A stretch of 64,000 bases of DNA. Source: Octopus vulgaris (Eukaryota). A model generated the notes under the pieces. That model saw nothing but the letters and a program-made list of their open reading frames with translations, made no database searches and had not been told where the DNA came from. Numbering within the stretch: position 1 is the first letter of the stretch; each line of letters begins with the position of its first letter. The position numbers and the translations under genes were made by a program. Positions 5,033-54,682 of the stretch are shown one piece after another. Where the stretch lies: NCBI GenBank assembly GCA_951406725.2, contig OX597836.1:33046001-33110000 (forward strand), written 5' to 3'.

Positions 5033-5900
5033 TATAAAAGGTGCATTCCAGAAGTTCTGAGATTTTTTCAAGAGAGACATTAATTTCAAAGAAGCACAAA
5101 ACTCTAATCTCCTTCAAAGTAGGATCCACTGACCTCAATGAACTTGTTGCAGTGCTCCAGCCACTTTGTGAAGGCCCCATGGATGCCCTCCAAAGTGAAG
5201 GTATCTAGGACCCTTCAAGGCGGCGAGCTGGCAGAATCGTTAGCACACCGCATGAAATGCTTAGCGGTATTTCGTCTGCTGCTACGTTCTGAGTTCAAAT
5301 TCCACCGAGGTCGACTTTGCCTTCCATCCTTTTGGGGTTGATTAAATAAGTACCAGTTACGCACTGGGTCGATATACTCATCTTAATCCATTTGTCTGTC
5401 CTTGTTTGTCCTCTCTATGTTTAGCCCCTTGCGGGCAGTAAAGAAATAGGTATCTAGGACCCTTGTCTCAGCCTCCTTCAGCTTGGAGAACAACCAAAAG
5501 TCACAGGGAGCAGGGTTTGGATTGTAGGGAGGGTGAGGGGCAGTTTTGATGCCTGTCTCTGTCAAGTAGTTGGTTACCAGGATGGAACTGAAGATGGGTG
5601 CGTTATCCTGGTGCGTTTGCTCTGGCGTCTTGCAATGAGATCTCTCCCTGAACCCCTTCAAAACCTCCAAAAAGTACTCTATGTTGACCATCTGGCACGA
5701 GGGATCCTGGAGGACATAGATAATGCCCTTGCTGTCAAAAAAGGGGATTATCATGTGCTCCCAGTGGACTCACTTTGCATGGCCATTTGTGCCAGCAAAG
5801 AAACAGATGTTCGACTCATACAAGTTAATCCATGACCAGTCTGGAGCACTTCATAAGTTTCTATAGTATTTTTCCCCCAGTTTAACACAAAACTTCATTG
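5033..5900 (-). pseudogene. Mariner (Tc1/mariner) transposase remnant interrupted by a SINE
   Basis: FFDSKGIIY..HQDNAP..HPPYNPNPAPCDFWLFSKLK (mariner HDNA and YSPDLAP-D motifs). After removing the SINE it continues FTLEGIHGAFTKWLEHCNKFIEVSGSYFEGD*. Element ends are approximate. Confidence 0.85.
5216..5447 (+). mobile_element. tRNA-derived SINE family B, full length
   Basis: A box TGGCAGAATCG, B box GTTCAAATTC; 17-bp TSD aggtatctaggaccctt at 5199-5215 and 5448-5464. Confidence 0.9.
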
Positions 5901-48799: not shown

Positions 48800-49095
48800 T
48801 ATTCTTTTGTTCTTTTACTTGTTTCACCCATTTGACTGCGGCCATGCTGGAGCACTGCCTTTAGTCAAACAAATCAACCCCAGGACTTATTCTTTGTAAG
48901 CCTAGTACTTATACTATCGGTCTCTTTTGCCGAACTGCTAAGTTACAGGGAAGTAAACAAACCAACTACGGTTGTCAAGCGATGGTATGGGGGATTAACA
49001 CAGACACACAAATACATACATACATATACATATATATATATATATATTTATACTATGGGCTTCTTTCAGTTTCCTTTTACCAAATTCATTCACAT
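48800..49095 (-). mobile_element. SINE family A, 5'-truncated
   Basis: Reverse-complement homologue of 705-1003. Confidence 0.85.
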
Positions 49096-49115
49096 GGGTT
49101 TATATATATATTGGG

Positions 49116-49604
49116 AGGATGACCTCCCTTTGCAAATAACACAAGGGCACTGAAATTTTGTGTCTAAGGCCAGCTGGTGACGTTGATCTCCTGGGGCTAA
49201 AAGCATCAGTGACACCCCACCCCCAGTGGCTAGCCACATTCAGATGGCTAGTACACTTTACGTTGTCGAGCGGTTACTGTTTATATCTCGTTCAGAGATT
49301 TATTAATGCTTTCAGACAGTTTTTCTAAATCAGTGACAGTGGTTGCTGTGAAAAACGTTAAATATTATTATTTGCAAGGGTCTCCTTCATCGAAAACCGG
49401 TGTTTACCATGCGTTGACGAGAGGCAATTACCTTGAAACTATAGTCCGTATGTATCACTTAGGTTTTCGAGGAAGGATGACCTCCCTTTGCAAATAACAC
49501 AAGGGCACTGAAATTTTGTGTCTAAGGCCAGCTGGTAACGTTGATCTCCTGGGGCTAAAAGCATCAGTAACACCCCACCCCCAGTGGCTAGTACACTTTA
49601 CGTT
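49116..49604 (+). mobile_element. Retrozyme/Penelope-like non-autonomous element: ~1.4 tandem units of a 340-358-nt monomer
   Basis: Direct repeats 49116-49264 and 49474-49604 differ by an 18-nt indel between tggctag repeats. Hammerhead motif lies between them; (TA)n on both flanks. Confidence 0.7.
49408..49452 (+). ncRNA. Type I hammerhead ribozyme motif (C3U variant)
   Basis: catgcg TTGACGA gagg-caatta-cctt GAAA ctatag TC cgtatg: 6-bp stem I, 4-bp stem II, palindromic stem III, GUC triplet. Confidence 0.75.
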
Positions 49605-49844
49605 ATATATATGTATATATATATAGAAATATTAAATTTCTAAATGTCTCAAAGAAACATGAGCGGTGGTAGAGCGATAGAGTAGTTGTATACTGTCAAC
49701 TTAACGTGACAGTCCCGTATGGGAATTACACCACCGCTGTTTAGCCCTAGGAAGCATCGAATGCTTCCTGTCGGCTTTGACACATTTTCTGTGTCCTTAT
49801 ATTTGTGAAGGGGAGGCAAGCACCCCTACCAGCCAAGATTCACA

Positions 49845-50101: not shown

Positions 50102-50242
<141 letters not shown>

Positions 50243-54325: not shown

Positions 54326-54501
54326 GACATGGTTTCTGGTACCTGTCTGACAGAAGTCTGTGATTGGTCTGTTCTTATAGGCTAGGGGACAACATCTGGT
54401 TGTCTCTCAATGCTCTTCCATTCGTGACACCCTTTTCTTTTTAAATCTTCTTCATCCAAAATCTTTCAACACTTTAATCTTTCTCTTTCTTCATTTTCCA
54501 G

Positions 54502-54682
54502 CCGGCCAGACTCATCATTTATTTGGTTTCTCAACCCACTGAAATCAATCCGGTACATTCTATGGCACAACTACAAATGGATGATCTTGAAGATTATCAT
54601 CTTTATCCTGCTTGTTTTAGTGTTGGCTCTATTTTTCTATTCCATGCCTGGTTACACAGTCAAGAAGATGATGGGTGCGTGA
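54502..54682 (+). CDS. OTOF: Otoferlin terminal coding exon with TM anchor, [59 protein letters not shown]
   Basis: ttctctttcttcattttccag acceptor at 54501. Phase fits the previous exon (AA+C = Asn). Ferlin_C motif WFLNPLKS, hydrophobic TM segment and otoferlin-type PGYxVKKxxGA* end; TGA at 54680-54682. Confidence 0.95.

Follow-up and report, generated by a model that had tools for sequence, protein, structure and literature searches.

A non-coding hammerhead repeat of the octopus genome with the insertion ends of Penelope-like elements

The DNA examined here, a 64,000-nt window of the Octopus vulgaris genome (contig OX597836.1, positions 33,046,001 to 33,110,000), contains a short head-to-tail repeat with a hammerhead ribozyme motif. 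The original prediction read the repeat as the genomic copy of a viroid-like, rod-shaped circular RNA that had been reverse-transcribed past its own start. The question raised by this locus is by which route the retrozymes of animals return to DNA. The analysis addresses it with a hammerhead unit that encodes no protein and on which the tail and the two inverted arms of Penelope-like elements (PLEs) are now found. Positions are those of the window unless stated otherwise, and the features are collected in Table 1.

Table 1. Features of the octopus element and its surroundings in window coordinates
Feature	Position	Strand	Basis or remark
TA-rich target run, 5′ junction	49099..49112	.	sequence; counterpart TA run at 49605-49625
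5′-truncated partial unit (unit positions ~207-358)	49113..49264	+	repeat alignment
Full-length 3′ unit apart from an 18-nt deletion close to its end	49265..49604	+	ends at unit position 358
Tail segment separating the family's two fixed 3′ ends (unit positions 1-47)	49265..49311	+	second end class 39-53
Local two-stem hairpin, predicted	49319..49356	+	excludes two of the claimed rod helices
Long arm prolonging hammerhead stem I, ~45 bp with bulges	49368..49497	+	pair probability 0.93
Type I hammerhead motif	49408..49452	+	predicted cleavage after C49446
Exon of a ferlin-family host gene	50141..50242	+	Pfam Ferlin_C, E 1.8e-8; ~540 nt downstream of the element

The insertion spans 492 nt or ~1.4 units (49113-49604) and is flanked on both sides by TA runs, which blur the exact limits of any target-site duplication (~10 bp). 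The direct repeats, at first thought to start at 49116, match over 49113-49264 and 49471-49604 with two substitutions and one more near the 5′ edge; the 5′ boundary was re-set to 49113, while the period of 358 nt stood. The 18-nt indel between them is real, but the 340-nt length once offered as an alternative unit belongs to a damaged variant. The gap arose by deletion from the 3′ unit of the window copy, between two 7-nt repeats. Since the other 21 of the 22 aligned units keep the 18-nt segment, which is duplicated in one unit elsewhere, the unit is 358 nt long. The longest stop-free frame in the tandem unit has 81 codons, showing that the unit is non-coding. Unit position 358, the first of the two fixed 3′ ends of the family, is probably the start point of reverse transcription, and the tail segment that follows it contains a small predicted hairpin (49285-49299). 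The partial unit has no hammerhead because its start falls downstream of the motif. As it has one hammerhead, the window copy cannot be cut twice to free a monomer; it is likely a dead end that releases no circle. Other loci of the family carry at least two hammerheads, and two at a locus are the criterion for an active copy in the available text of a 2026 preprint (10.64898/2026.07.22.740005).

The element likely sits in sense orientation in the intron preceding the ferlin exon of Table 1, where a weak, dimer-dependent ribozyme would presumably be tolerated. The next ferlin exon lies at 54497-54670 on the + strand, the two being the last two coding exons (Ferlin_C); an upstream Ferlin_C match outside the window is weak (E 0.17). 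A very abundant host repeat (~48800-49101) stops at 49094-49101 before the TA run and is absent past the insertion. Far from the element, a minus-strand frame at ~5450-5830 resembles what we take to be a decayed piece of a mariner-type transposase.

The hammerhead claimed at 49408-49452 was confirmed as a motif, and its junction after C49446 as a cleavage site predicted from the sequence. The motif has a 6-bp stem I, a 4-bp stem II and a 2-bp stem III inside an 8-nt palindrome (49438-49445). In the core, UUGACGA, a U replaces the consensus C3 to give a U3·G8 wobble, and stem II has a G·U wobble at its base; cleavage is thus expected to be slower. An Rfam search of the window detected no hammerhead at 49408-49452. 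The motif of a sister subfamily with a 352-nt unit and a C3-G8 pair matches RF00163 (Hammerhead_1) with an E-value of 5.2e-6 and 32.2 bits, the gathering score being 34. U3 is fixed in the subfamily of the window copy: all 59 insertions covering the site have U3·G8, mostly with G·U at the base of stem II. A count by eye over the first 100 motifs listed gave C-G at positions 3 and 8 in 48, U-A in 29, U·G in 23 and C·A in none. Judging from these sequences, the U-A class could be fed by CpG decay, but the U3-A8 copies carry linked changes of their own. Natural U3 variants of the hammerhead are described as slower and presumably active (PMC7151607), a U3-A8 hammerhead is known in Schistosoma PLEs (PMC4209133), and eight of nine Xenopus retrozyme dimers are reported without cleavage (10.64898/2026.07.22.740005). 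Standard ribozyme models overlook whole subfamilies with a U3 core.

Comparison of 22 units of five subfamily types showed that 11 of the 31 pairs of the hammerhead and its arm had changed on both sides, a number reached in 0 of 500 shuffles and lowered, not raised, by one off-register pair (0/22 paired) in the structure used. Such double-change counts come from related sequences and are not probabilities. Compensatory changes are found in five of the nine pairs of 49390-98/49462-70. As far as aligned sequences can tell, the type I hammerhead covaries across subfamilies and the ribozyme is under selection. In stem III, the most frequent variants are palindromes, in keeping with cleavage by a dimer; the duplex of the 8-bp palindrome has a predicted energy of -7.2 kcal/mol. 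The hammerhead pattern lies on one strand only in the window copy, and a minus-strand pattern was found in none of four subfamily units.

The expectation that the unit folds as a circle better than shuffled controls was borne out: the intact unit (49116-49473) reached -108.7 kcal/mol (z -4.25), and none of 150 shuffles was as low. As circles, the 340-nt variant gave a z of -3.54, the reverse strand -3.08 and four subfamily units -3.1 to -5.3. The extension proposed for stem I (49368-49407 with 49452-49497) also held, with a mean pair probability of 0.93; on this model, the long arm would keep both ends of the cleaved monomer together. The rod beyond it was not supported. Three of its outer helices (49295-99/49544-48, 49314-18/49519-23 and 49330-35/49506-11) have a probability of 0.0 and cost 8 kcal/mol when enforced, whereas the fourth (49273-79/49565-71) is part of the minimum free energy (MFE) structure with a probability of just 0.27. 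The complementary words on which the rod was based therefore exist, but three of the four outer helices are not formed in the prediction, because local hairpins occupy their bases. The paired fraction of the unit is 0.63-0.65 vs. 0.61 in shuffles, and all 22 aligned units have 5-9 hairpins. Across these units, pairing reaches 86% in the three rod helices, 91% in the competing local hairpins and 90% in the hammerhead with its arm; double changes number one in 16 pairs for the rod helices and one in 25 for the hairpins. Energy and covariation are thus both against the rod, and the unit adopts a branched fold with one long ribozyme arm instead of the viroid-like shape. The MFE structure of the monomer lacks the active core (stem III probability 0.0), the active fold lying 5 kcal/mol above it.

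The search for multimers and relatives in the octopus genome, in which 40 of 2607 first-look candidates were scored, yielded hundreds of copies and several subfamilies; the dispersed multimers in one phase agree with the prediction. Exact matches numbered 450 for an 18-nt terminal motif (control 0), 1574 for a hammerhead pattern spanning several subfamilies (control 0) and 83 for the pattern of the U3-A8 sister subfamily (control 2). Copies of the C3-G8 sister subfamily are 98-100% identical. Pieces of the unit also occur in contigs of runs under three further organism labels. The suspected identity as a metazoan non-LTR retrozyme is upheld by the short, non-coding, head-to-tail multicopy unit, the type I hammerhead and the stability of the circular fold.

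Several loci stand out within the family. A very young 352-nt subfamily with a canonical core (L078:136-487 and relatives) is two-armed and reaches up to 7.5 unit lengths; from its sequences, it is the best candidate for current activity. Two-armed arrays with a period of ~359 nt are formed by subfamilies with a shorter stem III palindrome (G000:C1:20002277-20004543, C1:92886704-92887860 and L277). Family copies were multiplied together with their flanks in a four-fold 1.38-kb tandem (G000:C1:94322037-94326202), and a pair of copies 250 kb apart (C2:152.13/152.39 Mb) shares its flanks. Parts of the unit are covered by contigs from four runs that may be RNA; these contigs are uninformative on strand, ends, level and circles. 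Among those listed, the loose ends in DNA-type contigs held other subfamily sequences and no ORF.

The insertion ends were compared in 60 insertions, which are those behind the first 100 listed of the 450 terminus matches minus five segmental duplicates; the unit was numbered from window position 49265, and one locus, L078, is classed imperfectly. The 3′ ends fall into two classes, at 343-358 or at 39-53, ~47 nt apart. All 25 simple insertions end in either class (20 in the first and 5 in the second). The remaining 35 insertions are inverted, and in 30 of these the end of one arm belongs to the 343-358 class and that of its partner to the 39-53 class; the other five have one classed end and one other end, and none has two ends of one class. 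In PLEs, the tail is a 30-40-bp extension, usually on just one end of inverted insertions (Craig et al. 2021), which Frangieh et al. 2024 traced to two internal start sites of reverse transcription and called unique to PLEs (PMC11167929). Thus, the two end classes, one per arm, represent the PLE tail signature on retrozyme insertions. Runs of (TA)3 occur in 175 of 327 15-nt flanks vs. 25 of 327 control stretches 140-155 nt off. The traits of PLE-type mobilisation are all present, namely two fixed ends, a tail on one end, 5′ truncation and an AT-rich target. The 5′ ends are scattered and do not accumulate where cleavage is predicted, with 4 of 92 lying within 178-188 and 1-7 in neighbouring windows; sequence scars at the cleavage position (columns 182-183) were also absent.

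Comparison with PLEs showed that the unit is not an ordinary PLE pseudo-LTR (pLTR), in agreement with the original prediction: no copy examined belongs to a PLE ORF as its pLTR. The sequence before each full unit was read in 165 insertions from four subfamily groups. For 118 of 135 full units it is the end of the preceding unit; for the remaining 17 it is a truncation junction, an inversion junction or a short remnant. A common foreign sequence precedes none of them. PLE protein is encoded within 300 nt of one of the 165 insertions, and PLE pieces occur in 7 of 200 wider loci, some of which overlap, without a pLTR-ORF arrangement in any of the seven. Flanks common to insertions (52 pairs) look like host repeats by TA runs, in mixed orientation, and PLE protein is encoded in L170 alone among them. 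At this locus (866-1740), an internal piece of a PLE ORF (query residues 363-508) is joined directly to 1.1 sister-subfamily units between TA runs; this single case is possibly a template-switch chimera. Two further candidates were rejected. L141, taken for a PLE with the unit as its pLTR, is a separate truncated sister insertion in a TA run ~600 nt past the PLE end, and the PLE copy at L242, taken for a chimera, is older, frameshifted and devoid of its last 50-100 nt, which fits an insertion with a deletion.

The genome contains 6136 GIY-YIG candidates, of which 150 were scored and 50 loci read, a partial sample of PLE diversity. The unit is the terminal repeat of none of these 50 PLE loci, nor of any of 25 loci of another PLE family. 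The terminal repeats of the sampled PLEs are unrelated to the unit and carry a different, minimal hammerhead. A young two-frame PLE family (L131, L135 and L150) has an upstream ORF of ~480 codons with no clear Pfam family, which overlaps a 781-codon frame for reverse transcriptase (RT) and GIY-YIG; the element has a minimal U3-A8 hammerhead ~70 nt before its first end, a 45-nt tail of its own and TA targets. A likeness between this tail and that of the unit, spotted by eye, failed a shuffle test in three subfamilies (p 0.47, 0.02 and 0.82; not significant). From the anatomy of the insertion ends, we infer that the helper is a PLE by kind. An ancestral origin of the unit from a PLE terminus is possible.

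The template was approached through the inheritance of variants. A mutation in a source array should appear at one rank if an array is copied into an array, and in every unit if one unit is the bottleneck of each generation. The sample, drawn from the 40 best-scoring loci of the young 352-nt subfamily, comprised 39 insertions (1.0-7.5 unit lengths) and is biased towards long and young copies. For non-CpG variants found in at least two insertions, 12 cases were counted. In 11 of them the variant was present in every unit that covers its site, and 10 of these 11 concern successive laps of a single arm. This pattern favours a template of one unit, which is likely circular. Private variants of this subfamily were present in all units 6 times, in a subset 6 times and in a single unit 73 times; for recurrent variants of the older subfamily of the window, the counts were 168, 9 and 50, many of the last beside an indel. 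One variant order recurs in both arms at a C2 locus (4/6 units), and one variant is common to both first units at L243 (2/4); such rank-matched variants would be expected from a heterogeneous multimer template or gene conversion. L012:1501-2590 is one array joining units of two subfamily types, and the arms of the inverted insertions L099 and L065 differ at subfamily-linked sites. These three loci suggest two RNA molecules per event, or in-phase insertion into an older copy. DNA-level homogenisation of arrays is possible. In vitro, the PLE PAc inserts without the need for hammerhead cleavage and uses unprocessed RNA (PMC11167929). Weighing these sequence patterns, a circular template is moderately favoured over a linear multimer, with template switching, two RNAs or later conversion as extra routes. 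Of the predicted circular RNA copied past its start, the reverse transcription of more than one unit stands and the rod does not, while the variant counts favour the circular template.

Taken together, the stretch in the window is likely a 5′-truncated copy of a non-LTR retrozyme that was inserted in trans by the RT-endonuclease of a PLE, probably from a one-unit circular RNA. The proposed cycle would begin with transcription of a locus with at least two hammerheads. Ribozyme cleavage, probably in dimers that pair through the palindromic stem III, is predicted to free a monomer whose ends would be kept adjacent by the long stem-I arm. Following Cervera and de la Pena 2020, the circle would be closed by a host ligase. 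Judging from the insertion ends, the PLE protein would nick TA-rich DNA and prime inside the RNA at 358 or ~47; reverse transcription would then circle the RNA for a fraction of a lap to several laps, and two initiations would produce the inverted two-arm insertions. We give about even credence to the most specific form of this proposal: rolling-circle target-primed reverse transcription of a ribozyme-made circle by a PLE protein, with two fixed internal starts, sometimes with two RNAs per insertion and without terminal sequence shared with the sampled helpers, in a radiation that is still live. If true, it would provide direct genomic evidence for the mobilisation step left as a proposal in the retrozyme papers, and the 3-8 pair would have shifted from C-G to U-A by way of U·G in subfamilies that kept spreading.

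The closest alternative retains the same PLE-mobilised family but takes as template an uncleaved multimer in linear form, or linear monomers linked through template jumps, with any circles as a by-product and arrays homogenised by DNA duplication or conversion. This scheme would accommodate the rank-matched variants across both arms in two insertions, the mixed-type array of L012 with the mixed arms of L099 and L065, the weakened core fixed in a successful subfamily and the use of unprocessed RNA by PAc in vitro (PMC11167929). It is rather unlikely, however, as in 11 of 12 cases an inherited variant is present in every unit instead of at a single rank, the ribozyme and the long closing arm covary, and the cleavage position is free of sequence scars. 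Most sources also have fewer than two units, so that 5′-truncating copying alone would be expected to shorten the arrays. The 99%-identical subfamily, the intact-looking RT and GIY-YIG frames and the existing in vitro PLE assay (PMC11167929) make the choice between circle and linear template testable.

Two further readings were weighed. An ordinary 5′-truncated tail-end copy (pseudo-LTR) of an autonomous PLE would show every PLE-type end feature present here, and is consistent with the 21 PLE matches among 57 Xenopus retrozyme families (10.64898/2026.07.22.740005), the fusion of a PLE ORF piece to the unit at L170 and the sampling of PLE diversity in part (150 of 6136 GIY-YIG candidates scored). 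We nevertheless regard it as improbable: 5′ of the fixed end the sequence re-enters its own unit, for up to 7.5 unit lengths with both arms summed, no common PLE body lies beside the 165 insertions, the longest frame of the unit has 81 codons, and the sampled PLE terminal repeats are unrelated and carry a different minimal hammerhead. Least probable by our estimate is an endogenised viroid-like rod RNA that replicates from RNA to RNA and was reverse-transcribed by accident. The size, the hammerhead and the circular-fold z of -3 to -5 would suit such an RNA, whereas the fold is branched, the ribozyme pattern is one-stranded in 4/4 subfamily units, the genome holds hundreds of copies with fixed PLE-type ends in subfamilies of differing age, and related pieces occur under three further organism labels. 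Hammerhead viroids carry ribozymes in both polarities. The preferred reading thus remains a retrozyme inserted by a PLE protein.

With hammerhead viroids and viroid-like circular RNAs, the octopus family shares the size, the hammerhead and a stable circular fold, but it is a genomic multicopy retroelement with a DNA stage and one ribozyme polarity, and it is not a rod; viroids are described as having no DNA intermediate (PMC11210808). A search of openly available papers found none describing a retrozyme or hammerhead family of the octopus or of cephalopods; two of the matching papers mention the octopus in other connections, the words ribozyme and retrozyme are absent from the available main text of an octopus repeat annotation, and no title among the matches listed was on the point of a retrozyme with a tail, inversion or template switch. 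Related literature from which no specific figure was drawn comprises PMC10886601, PMC13282606, PMC6765202 and PMC7761336; Craig et al. is 10.1101/2021.04.23.441226.

The closest relatives are the metazoan non-LTR retrozymes, which have units of 150-450 nt, including a family of ~350-390 bp in the mussel Mytilus (Cervera and de la Pena 2020, PMC7229834), and of which mussel retrozymes of like size form circles. As in the available account of these elements, the octopus unit falls within that size range, has a GC content below 50%, no ORF and no evident LTR/PBS/PPT, and is arranged head-to-tail. Each unit has one type I hammerhead with a 6-bp stem I, a 4-bp stem II and a short palindromic stem III, and a stable predicted circular fold. 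In contrast to these retrozymes, the octopus copies are mostly dispersed insertions of 0.4-2.5 units instead of long arrays, and U3·G8 and U3-A8 cores are found in whole subfamilies. The PLE tail and the inverted arms documented in the octopus family have no description in the accessible parts of PMC7229834. Vertebrate retrozymes (Li, Clavereau, Pollet 2026, 10.64898/2026.07.22.740005) likewise are tandem type I hammerhead units that occur as monomers, dimers and multimers together with PLEs; no mollusc is among the classes named for the 35 genomes in the available text. PLEs were named as likely mobilisers of retrozymes from co-occurrence and pLTR homology (PMC7229834, 10.64898/2026.07.22.740005). 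The link in vertebrates consists of this co-occurrence and of pLTR homology in Xenopus, whereas the octopus link is the anatomy of the insertion ends, no homologous pLTR having been found among the sampled PLEs.

Similar to the endonuclease-containing (EN+) PLEs as described for PAc/Poseidon (PMC11167929; Craig et al. 2021), the octopus insertions have two fixed 3′ ends with a tail, partial tandems, 5′ truncation, an inverted 5′ arm, a tail on one end, AT-rich targets and a hammerhead upstream of the starts of reverse transcription. Unlike these elements, the octopus unit has no RT/GIY-YIG ORF, is 358 nt long instead of 3-5 kb and has a tail of ~47 nt instead of 30-40; its hammerhead is of the canonical type with a long closing arm, not minimal, and the cleavage site lies 176 nt upstream of the first end. 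The octopus family thus joins the metazoan non-LTR retrozymes, a kind of element already known, including from a mollusc, and works like a non-autonomous PLE.
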